DNA of 64,000 nt from Bacteroidota bacterium (GTDB taxonomy: Bacteria; Bacteroidota; Bacteroidia; NS11-12g; UBA955), in NCBI GenBank assembly GCA_963169345.1, contig CAUJCT010000047.1, positions 47,076 to 111,075 on the forward strand. The letters run 5' to 3'. A program made the position numbers and the translations under genes. Position 1 is the stretch's first letter, and every line of letters starts with the position of its first letter. The notes under the pieces were generated by a model, which saw nothing but the letters and a program-made list of their open reading frames with translations, made no database searches and was not told the DNA's origin. Below, piece by piece: positions 54,332 through 64,000 of this stretch.

Positions 54332-55498
54332 ATGAAAGAAACAAGTTCAATTTTACACGCTATCCCGGTCGACCCGCTCACCGGTGCAGTCTCCGTACCC
54401 ATCTATCAAACCTCTACATTCGTGCAGGATGCTCCGGGTGTCAACAAAGGTTTTGATTATGCCCGAACCAATAACCCTACAAGACAAGTGTTCGAAAACC
54501 TTATCGCTCAACTCGAAGGTGGTGCTAAAGGTATCGCTTTTGCCAGTGGTCTCGCCGCTATTGATGCCGTTCTTAAACTTTTGGAAGCAGGCGATGAAAT
54601 CATTGCCATCGACGATATCTACGGTGGTGCTTTCCGTCAGTTCACTCATGTCTATCAGAAATTCGGTATCAAAGTGCATTATGTCGATGTTTCAATACCT
54701 GAGAATATCATCGATTACATAACACCTAAAACCAAATTGCTCTGGATTGAAACACCCACAAACCCTACGCTTAAAATTGCTGATTTAAAAACGCTGGGTT
54801 CTATTGCTCAATCTTTTAATTTGCTGTTTTGTGTCGACAATACTTTCGCTTCTCCGGTATTGCAAAAACCACTGAGTCTTGGTGCCGATATCGTTATTCA
54901 CAGTGCAACTAAATATCTTGGGGGACACAGTGATTTAATCGCAGGTGCTGTTGTAACCAAAACGGATGAACTGGGCGATAAAATAAAATTCATTCAAAAT
55001 GCCTCTGGTGCTATTCTGTCTCCATTCGATTCATGGTTGTTAATTCGGGGTATTGAAACTCTGCATCTTCGGGTTTTCAAGCATGCTGAGAATGCACTCA
55101 AAGTTGCTCAGTTTCTTAATCAATCTGAGCTGATTCGAAACGTGTATTATCCAGGTCTCCCGAACCATCTTGGACATCAAATTGCCGCTTCGCAAATGCT
55201 GGCTTTTGGTGGTGTCCTGAGTTTCGATTTTCACGATGACGACAAAGAGCTTGCTCTGGCGTTTTTAAAACATTTGAAGTTGTTTAAACTGGCTGAAAGT
55301 CTGGGAGGAGCAAAGAGTCTTTGTTGTCTGCCTTCTGAAATGACACATAAATCTATTCCTCGCGAAAAGCGTCTGTCTTCGGGTGTTAGTGATAGTTTGG
55401 TTCGTTTGTCGGTGGGGCTCGAAGATGCAGCCGACTTGACTGAAGATATACAAAGGGCTTTAAACAAATTAAAAATAAATACCATTCAACATGATTAA
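54332..55498 (+). CDS. Cys/Met-metabolism PLP-dependent enzyme (cystathionine gamma-synthase / beta-lyase family)
   Basis: 388 aa. YARTNNPTR. PLP-lysine region SATKYLGGHSDLIAG. Downstream of the SAM riboswitch. Confidence 0.85.
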   Translation: MKETSSILHAIPVDPLTGAVSVPIYQTSTFVQDAPGVNKGFDYARTNNPTRQVFENLIAQLEGGAKGIAFASGLAAIDAVLKLLEAGDEIIAIDDIYGGAFRQFTHVYQKFGIKVHYVDVSIPENIIDYITPKTKLLWIETPTNPTLKIADLKTLGSIAQSFNLLFCVDNTFASPVLQKPLSLGADIVIHSATKYLGGHSDLIAGAVVTKTDELGDKIKFIQNASGAILSPFDSWLLIRGIETLHLRVFKHAENALKVAQFLNQSELIRNVYYPGLPNHLGHQIAASQMLAFGGVLSFDFHDDDKELALAFLKHLKLFKLAESLGGAKSLCCLPSEMTHKSIPREKRLSSGVSDSLVRLSVGLEDAADLTEDIQRALNKLKINTIQHD

Positions 55499-56738
55499 GA
55501 GAAAACAATTACATATAGGTCTTTTCGGCTTTGGCTGTGTAGGTAAAGGACTTTATGATGTTCTGAACTTAAGTAAGCACCCCTGTGCCGAAATTGTAAA
55601 GATATGCGTCAAGGACAAAACTAAGGACAGGGGAGTAGCAAAGGATCTCATCACCTTTGATAAACATGAAATACTCAACGATGATTCGGTCAATTTAGTT
55701 GTCGAATTAATAGACGATTCGGAGGAAGCTTTTGATATTGTTAAGAAGGCCTTACTCGCCGGGAAGTCGGTGGTAACTGCCAATAAAAAGATGATAGCTG
55801 AACATTTTGATGATTTACTCAGTTTACAGGCTTCCACCGGTCAGGCATTGCTCTATGAAGCTGCGGCTTGCGCCAGTATTCCAATTATTCGAAATCTGGA
55901 AGAATACTACGATACAGACATTCTGAATCGCATAGAAGGTATCATCAATGGCAGCACAAATTACATACTGACGCGTTCGCTCAACGAAGGTTTAAGCTAT
56001 AAGGAGGCATTGCAAATCGCTCAACAATTAGGGTATGCCGAATCAAATCCGGGTCTGGATGTGGAAGGACACGATGCCGCTAACAAACTGTCGATTCTGT
56101 CTGCTCATGCTTTTGGCCGTTTTATTTTACCTGAGGATTTGCCCAGAACAGGTATTCAAAATATCACATCTGCTGAATTGAAATTTGCAAGACAAAACAA
56201 CTGGAAAATCAAATTGCTTGCAAAAGCTTATAAAACCAGCGAGGGACTTACAGCTTTTGTTATGCCTTCTTATGTCGATGATGATTCAGCTTTGTACAAA
56301 GTGGATGATGTATTCAATGGTGTTCAGACTGAAACAGTGTTCGCAGATAAACAGTTCTTTTCGGGCAGGGGAGCAGGTGCCTTTCCTACAGCTTCAGCAG
56401 TCTTAAGCGATATTTCGGCACTGAGTTACGATTACCGCTATGAATACAAAAAATTGAATCAGGGAAAGGATATTCCTTTGATAGATGATGTCATTCCGGT
56501 TTATTTGCGCAGCGAAGATGTCGATGAGTCTGTTTTGAGTGACAGTTTTGAACATATTTTTGAAGTTTTTAAATCAGGAAACCGATTACATATCTGCGGT
56601 CAGATAAAACTTAAGACAATCTTCACATGGTTGAAAACACATCCCAATATGGCAGTATTACATTTGCCTGAAACTTATGTAGAGATAAATTCGAAGGGAT
56701 TACCGATACTTGAATTAGAAAACTTATCTGAATTATGA
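55491..56738 (+). CDS. hom: homoserine dehydrogenase
   Basis: N-terminal Rossmann fold IGLFGFGCVGKG. Catalytic region NGSTNYIL...GYAESNPGLDVEGHDAANKLSILSAHAFG. Overlaps the upstream gene by 8 nt. Confidence 0.85.
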   Translation: MIKRKQLHIGLFGFGCVGKGLYDVLNLSKHPCAEIVKICVKDKTKDRGVAKDLITFDKHEILNDDSVNLVVELIDDSEEAFDIVKKALLAGKSVVTANKKMIAEHFDDLLSLQASTGQALLYEAAACASIPIIRNLEEYYDTDILNRIEGIINGSTNYILTRSLNEGLSYKEALQIAQQLGYAESNPGLDVEGHDAANKLSILSAHAFGRFILPEDLPRTGIQNITSAELKFARQNNWKIKLLAKAYKTSEGLTAFVMPSYVDDDSALYKVDDVFNGVQTETVFADKQFFSGRGAGAFPTASAVLSDISALSYDYRYEYKKLNQGKDIPLIDDVIPVYLRSEDVDESVLSDSFEHIFEVFKSGNRLHICGQIKLKTIFTWLKTHPNMAVLHLPETYVEINSKGLPILELENLSEL

Positions 56739-57343
56739 CATTACAGTATATTTTTGAATTAACTGGCACAGCATTGTTTGCCGCATCCGGGGCACTGGTG
56801 GCTAACGATAAAAGCAATGCCGACTGGTTTGGGGTCACCTTTCTGGGACTGATAACTTGTTTGGGAGGAGGCTCTTTCAGGGACATATTACTGGGAGCTT
56901 ACCCTCTGGCATGGATTAAAGATATTTCGGTATTAATAGCAGGCTTTACGGGTATTATTTTAGCGGCACTCTTTTACAATGCACTGAAACGCTATAGAAA
57001 AAATTTGTTCATTGTTGAGACATTTGCCTTGGGGATGTTTACCATAATTGGCACACAAAAGGCGCTCGACTTCGGTGTTCACCCATTAATAGCTGCAGTG
57101 ATGGGCATGTTTTCTGCCGTCATGGGAGGCGTATTAAGAGATGTGTTAACCAATGAAATTCCGGTTTTGTTTAAGAAAGAAATCTATGCCACAGCCTGTG
57201 TTGCCGGAGCTCTGCTATATGTACTTTTAGTAAGGACGAGCAGTTTCCCTCAACTGAATCTGATACTTTCAGCTTTGCTCATAGTGTTTATACGTTTTAT
57301 CTCTGTTAGGTACAAATTGAGTTTGCCAAAGTTTAGGAATTGA
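56735..57343 (+). CDS. TRIC/UPF0126 family membrane protein (two glycine-rich repeats)
   Basis: Duplicated motif LGGGSFRDILLG / VMGGVLRDVLTN in a ~200-aa, 6-7-TM protein. Confidence 0.6.
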   Translation: MTLQYIFELTGTALFAASGALVANDKSNADWFGVTFLGLITCLGGGSFRDILLGAYPLAWIKDISVLIAGFTGIILAALFYNALKRYRKNLFIVETFALGMFTIIGTQKALDFGVHPLIAAVMGMFSAVMGGVLRDVLTNEIPVLFKKEIYATACVAGALLYVLLVRTSSFPQLNLILSALLIVFIRFISVRYKLSLPKFRN

Positions 57344-57494: not shown

Positions 57495-57899
57495 TTGTTT
57501 GTCTTTTTCATCAGAAATCCTATTTTTGGAACTTTGATGAAAACTAAAGACTATCAAAAAGGCTTGCATATTTTAGCTGAACTCAGTTCCGAAAATCTCT
57601 CAAGGTTAACGGATGCTGCGCCTTTTATTCAATATGTGCAAGAGCAAATAATAAAAAACGGATTGAGTCAACTGGGTGATGTACAACACAACTTTGATGG
57701 TGGTGGATTTACTGCGGTAGTTTGTTTGACGGAGTCGCATTTATCTGTTCATACCTGGCCTGAATACGGCATAGTAACTACCGATGTGTATCTGTCCAAT
57801 TTCATGAAGGATAATCAGGATGCTTGCAGAAATTTGTATAAAGCCATCAGAGATTTTTTTGAAGCTGAAGAAATTAATGTTCAGGAAGTATGGCGATAA
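57495..57899 (+). CDS. speH: S-adenosylmethionine decarboxylase proenzyme, small (Bacillus/SpeH) type; likely true start MKTKDY at 57537
   Basis: CLTESHLSVHTWPEYG contains the E-S self-cleavage site and the conserved HTWPE motif. Confidence 0.8.
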   Translation: MFVFFIRNPIFGTLMKTKDYQKGLHILAELSSENLSRLTDAAPFIQYVQEQIIKNGLSQLGDVQHNFDGGGFTAVVCLTESHLSVHTWPEYGIVTTDVYLSNFMKDNQDACRNLYKAIRDFFEAEEINVQEVWR

Positions 57900-58552
57900 G
57901 GGCATTAAGTACATCCACTTGCAGCAATTGCAAACAAGAATTTGAATTGTATTCAAGGCAAACAGATTTTTATATCTGCCCTCAATGTATTCAGGTATAC
58001 ACAAAGCAGGATTTAAATTTAAAGTTTTCTGCTAAATACATTCGCAAACCTGATACCATGTCTCATCTGCAAATAGGCACTGAAGGTAATATAGATGGCA
58101 GAGCTTTCAAGGTAATAGGATGTCTGGTTTTAATATTTGAAGAGAAATTCATTCAACTTTGGAGGGTAGTAGATTCTGATAAGCAAATGGACTGGATAAT
58201 TCAATTTCCAGGTTATTTTCTGGAGGCTCGTTTTACAGAAATCAATCACAATGATTATAAAGACTTAGAGTTGAAGCTGGCATTGAGCGGGCACAATTTG
58301 CCCGGATTAAATATAAGCTATACTTTAAACTGTATCACGAGATATAAATACGCTTATGCCCTGGGTGAAGTCAATATGATCATGGAAGAGAATGACAAGG
58401 GTTTGTTGTATTTGTTTCAGTCGCATAAAGGTCAGCAATTTTTATTGTTTGTCAATTCTGCCGATTCGATGACTGCTATCAATGCTCAGCACAGAGAACT
58501 GTCGGAGTTTGGTTTATCAAAAACTAAAGAGCTTGGTCTATGGAGTATTTAA
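57890..58552 (+). CDS. zinc-ribbon + DUF4178-like protein
   Basis: N-terminal CSNC...CPQC ribbon. 220 aa. Overlaps speH by 10 nt. Confidence 0.45.
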   Translation: MAIRALSTSTCSNCKQEFELYSRQTDFYICPQCIQVYTKQDLNLKFSAKYIRKPDTMSHLQIGTEGNIDGRAFKVIGCLVLIFEEKFIQLWRVVDSDKQMDWIIQFPGYFLEARFTEINHNDYKDLELKLALSGHNLPGLNISYTLNCITRYKYAYALGEVNMIMEENDKGLLYLFQSHKGQQFLLFVNSADSMTAINAQHRELSEFGLSKTKELGLWSI

Positions 58553-59817
58553 ATACCATACCGCCTCCGGTTGAGTTTGATTGCCCAAAATGCAAGAAGA
58601 CAAATATCAAATATCTGCATGATCAGACTCTGAATTATATATGCCCTCATTGTTATGTAGTCATTGATAATTTAAACAGAACTTATGATTTTGAACTGAG
58701 GAAAAATGTAAGGAAGTTTTATCTGAAACTGGGTGCTATTGGCATTGTTAAAGATGTGAAGTACATGGTAACCGGTATGCTCAATAAAAAGAGTGTAGAA
58801 GACCATTCGATATGGACTGAATATACTTTGTATAATCCTGAGAAAGGATACGCATGGTTGACAGTTTACGATGGCAACTGGACTTTTGTTGAAGAGATGT
58901 CAGTGCCTCCCTTATATAAATGGCCTTATTACCAAAAGGATTACAGCCGGTATATCAATTATGACAATGATGTTTATACAAAGTTTTTGATATATAATAC
59001 TTTAGTAATTGCCGGAAAAGGGGAGTTTCATTACGACCTGAATTCAGTTGAATCGGCTCTCACCGTTGAATACATCAAACCTCCGTACCTGATTAGTTTT
59101 ACAAAAACTGAAAACGAAATCATGTGGTTTAAGGGCGAATACATTGAAAATGATTTAATACGCTCAGGCTTTGATTTAGATGAACTACCGCGCAAACAAT
59201 CCCAGGGTTATCTGGAAGAGTACAAAGATCAAAACAGAAGCAGAACAGCACTCACCTTATATCTGATAACGCTTTTGATTGCTGCTCTGTATATGCTGGT
59301 TGACAACTCAATTCGTGATAGTACCAAAGTATTGAACTATTCTGAATTTGAAGTTTTGCCCATCGCTATGGACCATTATAAAAAAGTGGGGGAATTTAAA
59401 TTACATCAAAACCATCAGGTGCTTGAATTTAAATTCAGATGTGCTGAACTACACAATGAATGGGCTTATATGGATGTAGAACTATTGGAAAAGAAATCAG
59501 GAAAAACCACATATTTCAATATGCCTGTTGAATTTTATTCAGGATATGATGGAGGCGAATCGTGGACTGAAGGGGATAATGAAAATAATGCCATTCTTTC
59601 AAATATGGAGAAGGGCGAATATTCGGTTGGTATTAAAGCGATAGGCTCAGGAAATACGCCATTAACAGTGAATTTGAGTGTAGAGAAAAATATTCCGATT
59701 TTCAGAAACTTTTTCATGCTGGTACTCGTTGCCAGTATTGTTCCGCTTTACCACCTCTATAAATCCAGAAAATTCGAAATTAATCGATGGTTACATAGCA
59801 ATTTAAACGATGAATAA
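58540..59817 (+). CDS. zinc-ribbon + DUF4178-like protein with C-terminal membrane segments
   Basis: N-terminal CPKC...CPHC ribbon. Paralogous fold to the previous gene. Hydrophobic helices LTLYLITLLIAALYMLV and FFMLVLVASIVPLY. Confidence 0.45.
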   Translation: MEYLNTIPPPVEFDCPKCKKTNIKYLHDQTLNYICPHCYVVIDNLNRTYDFELRKNVRKFYLKLGAIGIVKDVKYMVTGMLNKKSVEDHSIWTEYTLYNPEKGYAWLTVYDGNWTFVEEMSVPPLYKWPYYQKDYSRYINYDNDVYTKFLIYNTLVIAGKGEFHYDLNSVESALTVEYIKPPYLISFTKTENEIMWFKGEYIENDLIRSGFDLDELPRKQSQGYLEEYKDQNRSRTALTLYLITLLIAALYMLVDNSIRDSTKVLNYSEFEVLPIAMDHYKKVGEFKLHQNHQVLEFKFRCAELHNEWAYMDVELLEKKSGKTTYFNMPVEFYSGYDGGESWTEGDNENNAILSNMEKGEYSVGIKAIGSGNTPLTVNLSVEKNIPIFRNFFMLVLVASIVPLYHLYKSRKFEINRWLHSNLNDE

Positions 59818-59879
59818 ATTAATTAACGATATCCGTTTGGGCATTCGACTCAATAAATTCTATACAATCTATCTGTTGA

Positions 59880-60224
59880 TTGTATTGGGATTTTTTGTTT
59901 ACTTGCAATATTCCGGTTATGCCTTGTTTAGTTCTCCAAACGACAAGGAGGTTAACACTGGTGGCGGTAACTCGGGCCGATCATCTTATTTTTATCATAA
60001 ATAATATTATGGAAAATTATATACACATAAAAGCAATTATAGCATCTGTTACCTTTTCAATTATCGGAACAGTTTTGCTCCTCCTGATGTTTTGGATTGT
60101 TGAGAAATTAACACCTGAAAACCTTTGGAAAGAAATTCTTGTCAATCAAAATAAAGCTCTTGCTATAGTTATTGGAGCTTTCGTGCTTGCAATCGGTATC
60201 ATCATTGCATCTGCTATTCATTGA
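59880..60224 (+). CDS. small DUF350-like membrane protein
   Basis: 114 aa, about 3 TM. Overlaps the next gene by 4 nt. Confidence 0.45.
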   Translation: MYWDFLFTCNIPVMPCLVLQTTRRLTLVAVTRADHLIFIINNIMENYIHIKAIIASVTFSIIGTVLLLLMFWIVEKLTPENLWKEILVNQNKALAIVIGAFVLAIGIIIASAIH

Positions 60225-61723
60225 AGAACTCTGTCTTACTTCTGATCTCTGTATTTGTTATCGCAACCTGTGGCTTAATCTATGAATTGGTCGCAGGCAC
60301 TCTTGCAAGTTATTTGCTGGGTGATTCAATTACTCAGTTTTCGACTATCATAGGTCTGTATTTGTTTTCAATGGGTATAGGGTCCTTTCTGTCCAAATTT
60401 GTAAAGGGAAATTTGCTCAGTAAATTTATTCAGATTGAATTCCTAATCGGTTTTCTTGGTGGTGTAAGTAGTGGTCTTCTATTTTACTTGTTTAATTATG
60501 TCGACTCATTCAGGATAATATTATACGCACTGGTTGCTATCACTGGTACTTTGGTCGGGATAGAAATTCCCTTAATCATGCGAATACTGAAAGATAATTT
60601 CAAATTCAATGACTTGATTTCAAATGTCTTTACTTTTGACTATATAGGAGCACTATTAGCATCTTTAATTTTTCCTCTGATATTGGTGCCTTATCTCGGA
60701 TTGATTAAAACGTCTTTGTTGTTTGGAGTACTAAATGTTTCTGTAGGATTGGTGCTGTGTTTCAGTTTGGATAAAGCCCATGTTTGGGTAAATAAATTGA
60801 AAGCCATTGGTATGGCAGTTGTATTGCTTTTAATTGTTGGTTTTGCTTTTTCTGATGCTTTAACTCAACACAATGAAGAAGTTTTCCTGGGCGAGAAAAT
60901 TATAATTGCACGCTCTTCTCCTTATCAAAGGGTTATAGTGACTTCCAATAAAGGCAGATTCAGATTGTACCTCAATGGCAATCTCCAGTTCAGCAGCGAT
61001 GATGAATACCGTTACCATGAAGCTCTGGTACATCCGCCATTTAGATTTAATTCAGACATTAATCGTGTTCTGGTTTTAGGTGGTGGAGATGGTATGGCAG
61101 TGCGTGAACTACTTAAATACAAGCAGATTTCATCCATTCAATTGGTGGATCTCGACCCGGTCATGTTGAAATTGTTTAAGGAAAATTCTCTGCTGGCCAA
61201 ACTCAATCAACATGCACTCAGCGATAAAAGGCTGAAAGTGTACAACGATGATGCAATGAAGTGGGTAGCGATTTGCAAGGATTCATTTGACCTGATTTGT
61301 GTTGACTTCCCTGACCCCGGAAATTATGCTATTGGTAAACTCTACACCAATACTTTTTATAAATCGATTCAACCACTGTTAAAATCTAAAGGTCTTATGG
61401 TGGTGCAATCTACTTCTCCTTTTTTTGCACCTAAATCGTTTTGGTGTGTAGAACATACCATTCAATCTGTCGGATTTAATACACTGCCTTACCATATATA
61501 CCTGCCTTCTTTTGGCGAATGGGGTTTTGTGATGGCTAGCAAACAATCGATATTAAACCATTCAGGACATTTTGCAGATGGTTTAAAATTTATCAACGAC
61601 GAAACCTTTCAAACTGCCACTGTTTTTCCTGCTGATATGAAAGCAGATAAGGTAGATGTCAATAGATTGGATAATCAGGTTTTGGTCAATTATTTTGAAG
61701 ATGAATGGGGTAAAATTCAATGA
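60221..61723 (+). CDS. speE: polyamine aminopropyltransferase (spermidine synthase) with N-terminal multi-TM domain
   Basis: About 200 aa of TM helices, then VLVLGGGDGMAVRELLKY...VDLDPVML...DFPDP, the spermidine synthase SAM-binding and catalytic motifs. Confidence 0.8.
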   Translation: MKNSVLLLISVFVIATCGLIYELVAGTLASYLLGDSITQFSTIIGLYLFSMGIGSFLSKFVKGNLLSKFIQIEFLIGFLGGVSSGLLFYLFNYVDSFRIILYALVAITGTLVGIEIPLIMRILKDNFKFNDLISNVFTFDYIGALLASLIFPLILVPYLGLIKTSLLFGVLNVSVGLVLCFSLDKAHVWVNKLKAIGMAVVLLLIVGFAFSDALTQHNEEVFLGEKIIIARSSPYQRVIVTSNKGRFRLYLNGNLQFSSDDEYRYHEALVHPPFRFNSDINRVLVLGGGDGMAVRELLKYKQISSIQLVDLDPVMLKLFKENSLLAKLNQHALSDKRLKVYNDDAMKWVAICKDSFDLICVDFPDPGNYAIGKLYTNTFYKSIQPLLKSKGLMVVQSTSPFFAPKSFWCVEHTIQSVGFNTLPYHIYLPSFGEWGFVMASKQSILNHSGHFADGLKFINDETFQTATVFPADMKADKVDVNRLDNQVLVNYFEDEWGKIQ

Positions 61724-63348
61724 GTGATTCCCGGAAAATATCCAGAAAAACTTTCGTTAAATTGGGGCTCCTGGCCAGTGCAGGCGCAGGTATTGGTATT
61801 TGGTCGTGGTCGAAGTCTCAACCTGAAAAATCAAATCAATGGTCTCTTAATTCGGTCAACAACAATGCCGATATCGCTCACATGATGCGGGATGGTATTC
61901 ATATAGTACCCAATCAAATTATCGAAATGCCTGTAGTGATTTTAGGCGCGGGTGTAGCAGGTATGTCTGCAGCTATGCACTTATCTCAGGCTGGTATGAA
62001 CGAATATGTCTTGCTCGAAATGGGCGAACAAAACGGAGGCAATTCTGTTTCCGGGAGCAATGATACAAGTGCTTTTCCCTGGGGTGCTCACTATTTGCCA
62101 TTGCCCAATTTAAATCAACCTGAACTTATCGATTTTTTACATCGATCTGGAATCATCACTGGTTTCGATGCCAATCAATTACCGGTCTATGATGAAATTA
62201 ATATTTGTTTTGACCCTGAAGAACGGTTATTTATTGATGGGAAATGGAGAGATGGTATTGAACCTGAATCTGCACTTTCTTCCAAAGATATTGAGCAGTT
62301 GGAATCTTTTCATTCTATGATGAAGGACTACCAGAACAGTATCGGAAGCGATGGTAAAGAAGCTTTCTGTATCCCTGTTCATCTGTCTTCAAGAGATGAA
62401 GCGTTTCTGAAACTGGATGAATTATCCATGGCCGATTTTTGCAAGAACAATGGCTTCGATTCCGAATTTTTGAAATGGTATGTCAATTACGCTTGTCTCG
62501 ATGACTATGGAGCTGATGCAGATACAGTCTCAGCATGGGCAGGTATTCATTATTTCGCCTCAAGAAAAGGAAAGGCAGCCAATGTTAAGACCGGGCAATG
62601 CCTGACCTGGCCTGAAGGCAACTACCGTTTAATCCAAAAACTTCAAAACAATATTAAGGGTCAATCATTGTCGCATCAGTTGGTTTATAAAGTAGATAAA
62701 GTCAATGAAGTTTACCAGATAGATGTTTATGATTATAAACTGAAAACATACAAACGCTATCAAACCAAACAAGTTATTGCAGCTCTGCCAAATTTTGTTT
62801 GCAAACGTATTTTTAACTCAGCTCTGATACCAGTTGAATCTGTGAGCTATCAGTACTATCCCTGGCTGGTAGCCAATATGAAAGTGGATTACAGAAAGCT
62901 AAAGTCTAATGGTGTCAGATTGAGCTGGGATAATGTGGTATACGGCAGATCTTCTCTTGGATATGTGAATGCCTGTCATCAACATTTGAATTACTCTGAA
63001 TCTTTGTTGAATTTAACTTTTTATCTTCCAATAAAAAAGGGAGAGGCGTCTGAGTCGCGCCAATGGGCCGGGTCTCAGACAAAGGAGAGTTGGAAACAAC
63101 TTATTTTAAATGAACTCGAAGTAGCTCATCCGGATGTAAATGAGGCCATCATCGACATGCAATACAAATTATGGGGACATGCCATGATAGCGCCTGTTAA
63201 GGGGTTTATCTCTGCAAAGTTGAGAAAAACAAAAACGCCATCTCAGGGATTGTATTTTGCACATAGCGACCAAAGTGGAATTTCTATTTTTGAAGAAGCT
63301 TTTTATCACGGTATTAAAGCCGCAAAATCCATTTTATCTCACGTATGA
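61720..63348 (+). CDS. FAD-dependent amine-oxidase-like oxidoreductase
   Basis: VVILGAGVAGMSAAMHL dinucleotide-binding motif plus ...GGN... 542 aa. Overlaps speE by 4 nt. Confidence 0.65.
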   Translation: MSDSRKISRKTFVKLGLLASAGAGIGIWSWSKSQPEKSNQWSLNSVNNNADIAHMMRDGIHIVPNQIIEMPVVILGAGVAGMSAAMHLSQAGMNEYVLLEMGEQNGGNSVSGSNDTSAFPWGAHYLPLPNLNQPELIDFLHRSGIITGFDANQLPVYDEINICFDPEERLFIDGKWRDGIEPESALSSKDIEQLESFHSMMKDYQNSIGSDGKEAFCIPVHLSSRDEAFLKLDELSMADFCKNNGFDSEFLKWYVNYACLDDYGADADTVSAWAGIHYFASRKGKAANVKTGQCLTWPEGNYRLIQKLQNNIKGQSLSHQLVYKVDKVNEVYQIDVYDYKLKTYKRYQTKQVIAALPNFVCKRIFNSALIPVESVSYQYYPWLVANMKVDYRKLKSNGVRLSWDNVVYGRSSLGYVNACHQHLNYSESLLNLTFYLPIKKGEASESRQWAGSQTKESWKQLILNELEVAHPDVNEAIIDMQYKLWGHAMIAPVKGFISAKLRKTKTPSQGLYFAHSDQSGISIFEEAFYHGIKAAKSILSHV

Positions 63349-64000
63349 AACAGGCTTATATACATCATGCAAAGTTCGACTGGTTCTTTATAATCGCGCC
63401 TCCCTTTGTGTGCCTGTTCATCGTTTTGTTGATGCCTTCATTGTTTCATTCTGGCAATGAAGTAGCTGGATTCTCCTGGCTTCTGTTAATAGTGCTCATC
63501 GATGTCGCGCATGTCTACAGCACAGGTTTTAGAACTTACTTCGATAAAGAGATGTCTGATAAGTTCAGACAGGTTTTTATAAGTGTTCCAATTATATCAT
63601 TCGTTATTGGTGTGTTGGTATATGCAGTACAACCCATGTTGTTTTGGCGTGTCCTAGCCTATCTCGCAGTGTTTCATTTTGTCAGACAGCAGTACGGTTT
63701 TATGCGTCTTTATGGAAGAAACGATAACATGCCCGCATACAAAAAACGGATAGATGCTATAGCCATATACAGTGCAACTTTATATCCATTGTTGTACTGG
63801 CATTTCTCCAATGACCGAACATTTAACTGGTTCTTAAAAGGGGATTTTGTTCTATCAGATATACCTGAAATGAGAACTGTTTTGGGAATAATTTATGTGA
63901 TTATTTGTCTCGTTTATATCATCAGCGAAATTCATTCAGTCATTCAGAAAAAATATATCAATTTGCCTAAAAACGCGCTCTTGCTTGGTACTGCTTTGTC
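63345..64000 (+). CDS. integral membrane protein, partial (runs off the window end); not in the ORF track
   Basis: ATG at 63345 overlaps the upstream stop (ATGA). Manual translation MKQAYIHHAKFDWFFIIAPPFVCLFIVLLMP... stays open for 218 codons and has several hydrophobic helices. Confidence 0.45.
   Translation, partial: MKQAYIHHAKFDWFFIIAPPFVCLFIVLLMPSLFHSGNEVAGFSWLLLIVLIDVAHVYSTGFRTYFDKEMSDKFRQVFISVPIISFVIGVLVYAVQPMLFWRVLAYLAVFHFVRQQYGFMRLYGRNDNMPAYKKRIDAIAIYSATLYPLLYWHFSNDRTFNWFLKGDFVLSDIPEMRTVLGIIYVIICLVYIISEIHSVIQKKYINLPKNALLLGTAL

Follow-up and report, generated by a model that had tools for sequence, protein, structure and literature searches.

Thousands of class-1b S-adenosylmethionine (AdoMet) decarboxylase genes reportedly co-occur with a gene in which a membrane domain is fused to a spermidine-synthase-like (SpdSyn-like) domain, and DUF350 is said to be linked to them. 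In this study (Li, Kurihara, Kim, Liang and Michael; Li et al. 2019), the decarboxylases are reportedly active, spermidine is said to be absent, the fusion reportedly fails to complement an Escherichia coli speE mutant, and the authors are said to have proposed an aminopropylation substrate different from putrescine. Here we analyse such a locus at the 3' end of a 64,000-nucleotide (nt) stretch from a Bacteroidota bacterium (GenBank contig CAUJCT010000047.1); the whole stretch is called the window below, and positions without a contig name are positions in it. The locus is a Bacteroidota copy of a widespread eight-gene operon that is already in the literature. With the clusters of Li et al. 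it shares the class-1b AdoMet decarboxylase (AdoMetDC), the fusion of a membrane domain with a SpdSyn-like domain, and DUF350. To our knowledge, the orientation of the catalytic domain, the export of an oxidase by the twin-arginine translocation (Tat) route and a micro-protein with a terminal lysine were not discussed there; the outward orientation, the Tat-type signals and the terminal-Lys micro-protein are proposed here as new.

Operons of the same kind were described by Ravi et al. 2024, in which a spermine/spermidine-synthase-like domain fused to seven transmembrane (TM) helices is encoded together with YjfL/DUF350, DUF4178, a small lipoprotein and PspA-CesT, and polyamine monitoring "or aminopropylation of other substrates" was proposed, citing Li et al. 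2019 (PMC11237479). A variant with Band-7 and SHOCT adds AdoMetDC and a 'polyamine oxidase', and the examples given include Shewanella SO_3765 and Mycobacterium tuberculosis Rv2597-Rv2601 (PMC11237479). The locus in the window has the TM-fused SpdSyn, DUF350, DUF4178 and a small envelope protein encoded 5' of DUF350 in common with these operons, and this micro-protein is the positional equivalent of the Shewanella 'LipoSIG+Ctha_1186+Low-comp' gene beside YjfL. It differs in that the window holds no Band-7/SHOCT gene (PspA was not searched for), two separate DUF4178 genes are present and there is an extra gene, G7. Rv2597-Rv2601 appear to be a related mycobacterial cluster, judging from the H37Rv annotation and the accessions that Ravi et al. 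cite. We have little doubt that the locus belongs to this published module of AdoMetDC, fused aminopropyltransferase, DUF350, DUF4178 and oxidase. An earlier reading of the same DNA, referred to as the original prediction, had called the neighbourhood uncharacterised to its author's knowledge. Our literature searches found no paper assigning a product or function to the module, and to that extent the statement holds, but the neighbourhood is not new, having been published in 2019 and 2024.

The analysed region extends from 57537 to the end of the window as an unbroken run of genes on the + strand:

G1, 57537..57899, + strand: class-1b pyruvoyl AdoMet decarboxylase-like protein, 120 aa (PF02675, 2.9e-22)
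G2, 57890..58552, + strand: soluble Zn-ribbon protein with a DUF4178-like module, 220 aa, paralogue of G3
G3, 58540..59817, + strand: Zn-ribbon and DUF4178, TM segment, outer domain of ~130 aa, TM segment and short C-terminal tail, 425 aa (PF13785, 1e-9)
G3b, 59810..60004, + strand: micro-protein with signal anchor and a polar tail ending in ...SSYFYHK, 64 aa
G4, 60009..60224, + strand: DUF350 (YjfL-type) membrane protein, 71 aa (PF03994, 6.7e-13)
G5, 60221..61723, + strand: 7-TM domain and aminopropyltransferase domain, 500 aa, TTG start (Spermine_synth, 1.1e-35)
G6, 61720..63348, + strand: member of the flavin amine-oxidase superfamily, Tat-like signal at the N-terminus, 542 aa (PF13450 and PF01593)
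G7, 63345..64000, + strand: polytopic membrane protein, truncated here where the window stops; the full 352 aa are encoded on an identical public contig (L001:5848-6906)

The tight coupling described in the original prediction is present. All its open reading frames (ORFs) were found in place, and the overlaps of 10, 13, 4, 4 and 4 nt are exact (G1/G2, 57890-57899; G2/G3, 58540-58552; G4/G5, 60221-60224; G5/G6, 61720-61723; G6/G7, 63345-63348). However, the prediction counted seven genes and there are eight, because the 64-aa micro-ORF at 59810-60004 was overlooked. The proposed domains (AdoMet_dc, DUF4178, DUF350, Spermine_synth and Amino_oxidase) were all matched in a hidden Markov model annotation.

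The terminal Lys of the micro-protein, the export signal of the oxidase and the outward domain of the fused enzyme lead us to place the chemistry of this module at the periplasmic face, possibly on an amine of a protein or a lipid and not on a soluble polyamine. The module probably does more than, or something other than, simply make spermidine, and it is reasonably likely that its aminopropyltransferase domain and its oxidase both work on the periplasmic side of the membrane. For the reading as a whole, an envelope-facing aminopropylation/oxidation system with an acceptor other than putrescine and not a spermidine pathway, we consider the chances evenly balanced. The terminal Lys of G3b as the acceptor is a tentative proposal, about which we have more doubt than confidence.

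The outward domain is that of G5. This protein matches the NF002956/PRK03612 model with 644 bits over residues 3-498 (cut-off 472), and scores 26.5 bits with the 'MFS_SpdSyn' model NF037959, below its cut-off of 40. About 200 aa of N-terminal TM helices had been predicted, and the AlphaFold2 (AF2) model, with a mean predicted local distance difference test (pLDDT) score of 94.3, has seven helices up to residue 209 (2-33, 36-60, 65-91, 97-122, 129-159, 161-182 and 188-209), followed by a linker helix and then the catalytic domain. Lys plus Arg residues average 9.5 on the N-terminus and loops 2-3, 4-5 and 6-7, versus 0.33 on loops 1-2, 3-4 and 5-6 (40 of 40 G5 members). Because of this positive-inside bias and the odd number of helices, the catalytic domain is predicted to lie outside the cytoplasm, and a crude per-sequence predictor gave 'C-terminus out' for 124 of 136 G5 representatives. 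No extra domains that could show the compartment were found in the long G5 homologues. Four acidic residues within the membrane helices (E22, E73, E115 and D140) are conserved, a pattern as would be expected of a cation conduit, although this remains speculative.

In a Foldseek comparison, the catalytic domain of G5 reached target-normalised TM-scores of 0.74-0.81 with 6BQ2, 1UIR and 1INL, at a root-mean-square deviation of ~2-4 A. These structures are thermospermine synthase, the T. thermophilus enzyme and the T. maritima enzyme, respectively. Q256, D261-E262-x-R-Y265-H-E267, G287-G-G-D-G291, D312, D344 and D362-F-P-D365-P are kept, and the catalytic residues are intact. The pocket motif VQSTSPFF resembles TQAGPA of thermospermine synthase and TQAGNS of the P. 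calidifontis enzyme (7XIF), unlike the acidic AQTDNP of Bacillus subtilis SpeE, which hints at a longer or different acceptor. In this respect the original prediction, a modified or longer polyamine rather than plain spermidine, stands in its negative part: 'not plain spermidine' fits the thermospermine-synthase-like motif and agrees with Li et al. 2019 as cited by Ravi et al. and with the reported findings of that work. Its positive part, a free longer polyamine, is only one option.

The second feature is the export signal of G6. As predicted, G6 is a 542-aa enzyme resembling flavin adenine dinucleotide (FAD)-dependent amine oxidases: it matches PF13450 (NAD_binding_8) at 1.6e-9 and PF01593 at 2e-7 (31.1 bits, cut-off 19.8, residues 79-539). 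Compared with solved proteins, the FAD-binding motif alone aligns, and the name 'polyamine oxidase' is therefore a superfamily label. The N-terminus of G6 reads S-R-K-T-F-V-K and continues into a Gly/Ala-rich stretch. Among 60 homologues with intact N-termini, RR followed by any residue and two hydrophobic residues is found in 46, RK or KR in nine and near variants in five; a lipobox-like Cys is also present in 15 of the 60. Export of G6 by a Tat-type signal is thus likely from these N-termini.

The third feature is the micro-protein G3b. Its ORF shares 8 nt with the end of G3, and 4 nt separate its stop from the ATG of DUF350 at 60009; an equivalent ORF lies directly 5' of DUF350 in all 61 loci where DUF350 abuts the fused enzyme. 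All 61 encode a C-terminal Lys, as ...HK in 43 and ...GGK in 18 (for example, ...AGSARYFGGK, ...WTGGFMGGK, ...SGYRGGK and ...RFYHK). Such ends occur in 74 of the 11,162 ORF segments in these loci (0.66%), and 61 of the 74 are the micro-ORFs. Between close relatives, changes at codon positions 1/2/3 number 7/9/26 and 11/8/32 in two examples; third-position changes dominate, which indicates that the micro-ORF is coding. The micro-proteins are 43-71 aa long and have a K/R-bearing n-region (34 of 36), a hydrophobic core of 15-20 residues and a polar tail of 22-42 residues; by sequence they look like signal anchors with the tail outside, and some carry a lipobox (Myxococcota, VAFSGC). In two Comamonas loci (L062:7988-9514 and L069:7949-9484), the DUF4178 protein is extended at its C-terminus by a fused micro-protein, consisting of a TM helix and a tail ending in ...SGGSHK, which is a Rosetta-stone link between the two. 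The micro-protein matches no Pfam or NCBIfam model, and a database search with it returned the identical sequence only, within the limits that the word index sets to such a search.

The original prediction missed all three features, the outward domain, the Tat-type signal and the terminal-Lys micro-protein.

In order to see how far the module is conserved, an exhaustive HMMER search was run with G5. At E<=1e-3 it gave 15,059 cluster representatives, and at E<=1e-30 there were 1,121 clusters at 50% identity, in line with a widespread neighbourhood. The top 150 matches are mostly full-length, with 35-50% identity. We took 80 related loci from GTDB species genomes via the family alignment of G5, covering at least eight phyla, and located the module genes in them by phmmer with the window proteins; loci whose flanks were too short for a given gene were left out of the counts below. 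The sample comprises Bacteroidota, Melainabacteria, Leptospiraceae, Bdellovibrionota, Myxococcota, Acidobacteriota, Verrucomicrobiota, Nitrospirota and alpha-, beta- and gamma-proteobacteria, and the order G1-(G2)-G3-micro-ORF-G4-G5-G6-(G7) is near-universal across it. Each gene was found as follows:

DUF350 (G4) adjoining G5: 64 of 78 loci
G3 Zn-ribbon/DUF4178 protein: 62 of 74 loci
G2-like module: 37 of 69 loci
AdoMetDC (G1): 44 of 61 loci
Flavin oxidase (G6): 64 of 72 loci
G7, 3' of G6: 30 of 65 loci

The zinc-ribbon and DUF350 genes are thus co-conserved with speH/speE, as the idea of one conserved module implies, and this holds across at least eight phyla. The lack of co-conservation that the original prediction had named as its refutation was therefore not observed. 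In 28 loci, all outside the Bacteroidota, a Band_7_1+SHOCT gene (~335 aa) lies 5' of the module, mostly ~2.4-4.7 kb 5' of G5 and on the opposite strand in five (for example, L007, L016, L018, L020, L032, L034 and L036); these 28 loci are exactly the Band-7+SHOCT variant of Ravi et al. No homologue was found in any Bacteroidota locus, nor in the whole 64-kb window at E<=10, PspA not having been searched for.

Two of the sampled loci carry labels at odds with their content. L055, labelled 'uncultured Rhodanobacter', holds a Hymenobacter-type module like L040 and L042, and L076, labelled 'Candidatus Saccharimonadales', a Terriglobales-type module like L067 and L070. Both are probably mis-binned contigs of metagenome-assembled genomes.

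A parallel to the micro-protein exists in E. coli, where DUF350 is found in yjfI-yjfJ(PspA)-yjfK-yjfL(DUF350)-yjfM-yjfC and tolC-ygiB-ygiC is similar. The DUF1190 lipoproteins YjfM and YgiB are paired with YjfC and YgiC, whose RefSeq name is 'peptide--spermidine ligase'. The name goes back to Pederick et al. 2023; according to a 2025 review, the physiological substrate of YgiC/YjfC is unknown (PMC11762307). In E. coli K-12, YjfM ends in ...SRGGYGRSSSARGHWGG and YgiB in ...TGTSSRSMGG (L083:488-1126 and L084:2245-2916). The YjfM tail is near-invariant in 34 of 41 full-length homologues while the preceding 20 residues are variable, and the seven exceptions look frameshifted. This conservation across Enterobacterales suggests that the last ~20 residues are functional, possibly as the ligase substrate.

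As in the module, DUF350 and a polyamine-handling enzyme are encoded beside a small protein that is anchored in the envelope and has a low-complexity tail of Gly, Ser, Arg and aromatic residues. The tails are alike: YjfM has ...SARGHWGG and an Acidobacteriota micro-protein ...SARYFGGK, those beside an aminopropyltransferase having one extra terminal Lys. Since PF06693 (DUF1190) gave no match at E<=10 to eight micro-proteins or to the micro-ORF of the window, this is a resemblance and not a demonstrated homology. The E. coli tails, in contrast, end in GG without Lys, AdoMetDC and oxidase are missing, and the chemistry is ATP-grasp ligation of preformed spermidine to a carboxylate, not aminopropyl transfer to an amine. 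In E. coli the compartments pose a problem, too: the ligase is cytoplasmic and the lipoprotein exported. Aminopropyl-lysine is a spermidine-like appendage. In a general tethering scheme, polyamine modules with DUF350 would attach a polyamine to a small protein of the envelope, at its C-terminal tail, with the ligase adding spermidine to ...GG, the aminopropyltransferase extending the terminal Lys outside the cytoplasm and the Tat-exported oxidase trimming or oxidising the product. This scheme appears to us unlikely.

Lysine-borne polyamines are known from hypusine on eIF5A and from the aminopropyl chains on silaffin lysines. These cases and microcin C are conceptual precedents for aminoalkyl units on a protein lysine or a peptide conjugate, and serve as a lead only; the enzymes involved, where identified, are unrelated, and all of them work in the cytoplasm or the secretory pathway, unlike the predicted outward domain of G5. 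For microcin C, aminopropylation was the subject of Kulikovsky et al. 2014, as listed in PMC6302742.

Taken together, the following course may be proposed. G1 would make decarboxylated AdoMet (dcAdoMet) in the cytoplasm, as its family suggests and with the Cys-to-Ser caveat given below. G5 would sit in the inner membrane with seven TM helices, its N-terminus inside and, from its topology, its catalytic domain in the periplasm. Its TM domain may, more speculatively, form a route along E22, E73, E115 and D140 by which the dicationic donor, or else the acceptor, reaches the active site. At this site an aminopropyl group would be put onto an amine other than putrescine. The leading candidate, itself doubtful, belongs to G3b: the epsilon-amine of its invariant C-terminal Lys, since the G3b tail is predicted in the same compartment. 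G6, as a Tat-type exported flavoprotein, would oxidise the product, for its removal or maturation, and G7 may be a His/Asp/Glu-rich partner in about half of the loci. G2/G3 and DUF350 would be constant scaffold or sensor subunits, and in other phyla may tie the system to the Band-7/SHOCT or PspA membrane-stress proteins. By these predictions, four parts of the system come together at the periplasmic face.

Several points weigh against this proposal. The orientation of G5 is derived from the positive-inside rule and helix counting only. No enzyme that uses dcAdoMet outside the cytoplasm is known to us as a precedent, nor any demonstration of an exporter for this donor. Both of the acidic residues that hold the diamine in SpeE-type enzymes are kept in G5, and a free polyamine acceptor fits this as well; in a terminal Lys, the place of a diamine's second amine is taken by a carboxylate. 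For G6, the Tat model TIGR01409 scored below threshold in four homologues (~12 bits versus 16.7) and did not match the window protein, which has RK and not RR. In the M. tuberculosis EXIT screen, many Rv2601 fusions were in the library and none scored as exported, which is weak and uninformative evidence, as this includes fusions at positions that must lie in loops; the main text of an APEX2 cell-wall proteomics paper makes no mention of Rv2601 or spermidine synthase. No biochemical data on any member of the module were found in the accessible literature.

The supply of the donor is a further point of this kind. G1 matches PF02675 with 79.5 bits (cut-off 25) and the equivalog model TIGR03330 with 71.6 bits, below its cut-off of 75.65. 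The self-processing site E66-S67, H72 and HTWPE are kept in alignment with T. maritima 1TLU and Aquifex 2III. Ser87 (codon 57795-57797), however, aligns with the active-site Cys83 of the T. maritima enzyme, which is needed for decarboxylation, and canonical AdoMetDCs have Cys here. Among 53 cluster-linked homologues, this position is Ser in 15 and Cys in 38; the Ser clade consists of Chitinophagia-, Cytophagia- and Sphingobacteriia-type loci, and Cys is found in Flavobacteriia and other phyla. AdoMet decarboxylase activity of G1 is thus predicted from its family, and the Ser together with the sub-cut-off TIGR03330 score makes donor synthesis in this organism less than certain. Some neofunctionalised SpeD homologues are Arg/Orn decarboxylases (PMC10407285).

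The alternative that we rate highest follows the original prediction: a free polyamine, modified or longer (thermospermine-like, norspermidine-like or aminopropyl-cadaverine), would be made or remodelled at the membrane and back-converted by the oxidase. The intact G5 site with both diamine-binding Asp would suit it, as would the best solved relatives of G5, thermospermine synthase and long-chain/branched-type enzymes, and the presence of an amine-oxidase-family partner (64 of 72 loci) and AdoMetDC (44 of 61). It does not explain why the enzyme is constantly fused to seven TM helices with an outward domain, why the oxidase carries export signals, or why a micro-protein with an invariant terminal Lys stands in 61 of 61 loci. 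It also sits badly with Li et al. 2019, where the AdoMetDC is reportedly functional, spermidine absent and the fusion non-complementing. We regard it as unlikely.

The micro-protein may have another role, its tail plugging the active site of G5 or G6, either as a pseudo-substrate with a regulatory function or as a subunit for assembly, with the true acceptor something else. An invariant terminal motif encoded beside G4 and G5 would be compatible with this, and the Comamonas fusion to the DUF4178 protein suggests a structural role in a complex. However, the parallel with the DUF1190 tails beside peptide-spermidine ligases suggests a tail that is modified, and we consider this role quite improbable.

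Also improbable, in our view, is an aminolipid head group (phosphatidylethanolamine, or an ornithine or lysine lipid) as the acceptor in the outer leaflet of the inner membrane, which would tune the charge of the envelope and be reversed by the oxidase. This would account for a catalytic domain tethered straight to a polytopic membrane domain, for an exported oxidase on the same face and for the PspA, Band-7 and SHOCT membrane-stress proteins linked to the module in other phyla. Against it, we know of no aminopropyl-lipid reported in well-studied carriers of the module, and it gives no reason for the invariant terminal Lys of the micro-protein.

An ordinary cytoplasmic spermidine pathway of speH and speE, membrane-anchored by chance among unrelated neighbours, is very improbable: NF002956 does name G5 'polyamine aminopropyltransferase' and PF02675 names G1 AdoMet decarboxylase, and the two enzyme folds and catalytic motifs are those of canonical SpeD/SpeH and SpeE (T. 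maritima, B. subtilis, E. coli), but the neighbours are co-conserved in order over at least eight phyla with inter-gene fusions, the canonical SpeE is a soluble enzyme of the cytoplasm whose pocket reads Q-T-D/E-x-P, whereas G5 has seven TM helices, a predicted outward domain and a pocket motif that is thermospermine-synthase-like and not SpeE-like, and published work indicates a non-polyamine role (PMC11237479).

For the envelope-facing system proposed here, the remaining subunits can be described as follows. G2 and G3 had been predicted as two paralogous zinc-ribbon, DUF4178-like proteins. G3 matches PF13785 with 39.1 bits (cut-off 25), and G2, which has no Pfam match above cut-off, is paralogous to the N-terminal module of G3 by BLASTP (2e-4), by cross-hits and by G2-G3 fusion ORFs; a single G2-G3 ORF of 630-700 aa is present in at least 12 loci. 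The Zn-ribbon cysteines of G2 are C11, C14, C30 and C33; it has no TM segment and is absent in Flavobacteriia loci. G3 has TM segments at 236-254 and 385-403, and in its family alignment CxxC..CxxC and EYYxGxDxGESWSEGS of the outer domain are invariant; the C-terminal tail shows the motif FExxRWSxSDY. The Zn-ribbon and DUF4178 are predicted to be cytoplasmic, with an acidic aromatic domain of ~130 aa outside. Neither DUF4178 nor the outer domain has a solved relative by sequence or profile, and the Zn-ribbon gave non-significant matches only.

G4 matches PF03994 with 49.3 bits (cut-off 26) over one repeat. Instead of the 3-TM mini-protein that had been predicted, it is a 71-aa protein with two TM helices by hydropathy. 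A longer G4 ORF of 114 aa overlaps the micro-ORF in a different frame, and on the identical contig L001 the gene caller placed an 87-aa DUF350 across the micro-ORF and left the micro-ORF itself uncalled.

G7 has more than 5,146 homologues, every one named 'hypothetical', and none of 43 members belongs to a Pfam family. Its invariant residues include H56, H111, H153, H241, H335, D53, D167, E291, E292 and D339. The AF2 model (pLDDT 90.3) has no fold match in the PDB better than E=0.68. G7 is a candidate for a new membrane enzyme or a redox partner of the exported flavoprotein. Within the G7 coding region, 63553-63571 forms an inverted repeat (7-bp arms, 5-nt loop) that has a terminator score on both strands, probably a chance match.

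On the 5' side, the longest ORF of G1 starts at TTG 57495, and ATG 57537 is the likely start. The sequence TATTTTTG at 57521-57528, 8 nt before this ATG, fits TAnnTTTG, the consensus of the Bacteroidota -7 promoter element; as a candidate promoter it would result in a nearly leaderless transcript. Scans for sigma-70 promoters and terminators gave counts no higher than in shuffled sequence, and such scans are uninformative for Bacteroidota. Directly 5' of the module, at 54332-57343, are genes for a Cys/Met pyridoxal phosphate enzyme, a homoserine dehydrogenase and a UPF0126 'Gly_transporter' protein, coupled with overlaps of 8 and 4 nt. A link to methionine/AdoMet supply through these three genes was considered and rejected; they are chance neighbours, because they are absent from all 80 related loci. 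On the 3' side, the operon ends at G7 on L001 (Logan ERR10643333), which continues with a convergent CHU_C gene and then lpxD-lpxC/fabZ-lpxA, a gene content compatible with Bacteroidota.

In genomes, the fused enzyme is commonly annotated as 'spermidine synthase' or 'polyamine aminopropyltransferase', and as a result metabolic reconstructions probably credit organisms with a spermidine pathway that may be absent. The outward orientation, the exported oxidase and the terminal-Lys micro-protein make the question of the acceptor, and that of the YgiC/YjfC substrate, approachable by mass spectrometry and reporter fusions. An outward orientation, if correct, would require decarboxylated AdoMet to be exported from the cell, which would be new biochemistry of the cell envelope. 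If the tethering scheme is true, the transfer to the terminal Lys would be the first extracytoplasmic dcAdoMet-dependent reaction, and bacteria would have their own equivalent of hypusine and of the lysine polyamination seen in silaffins.

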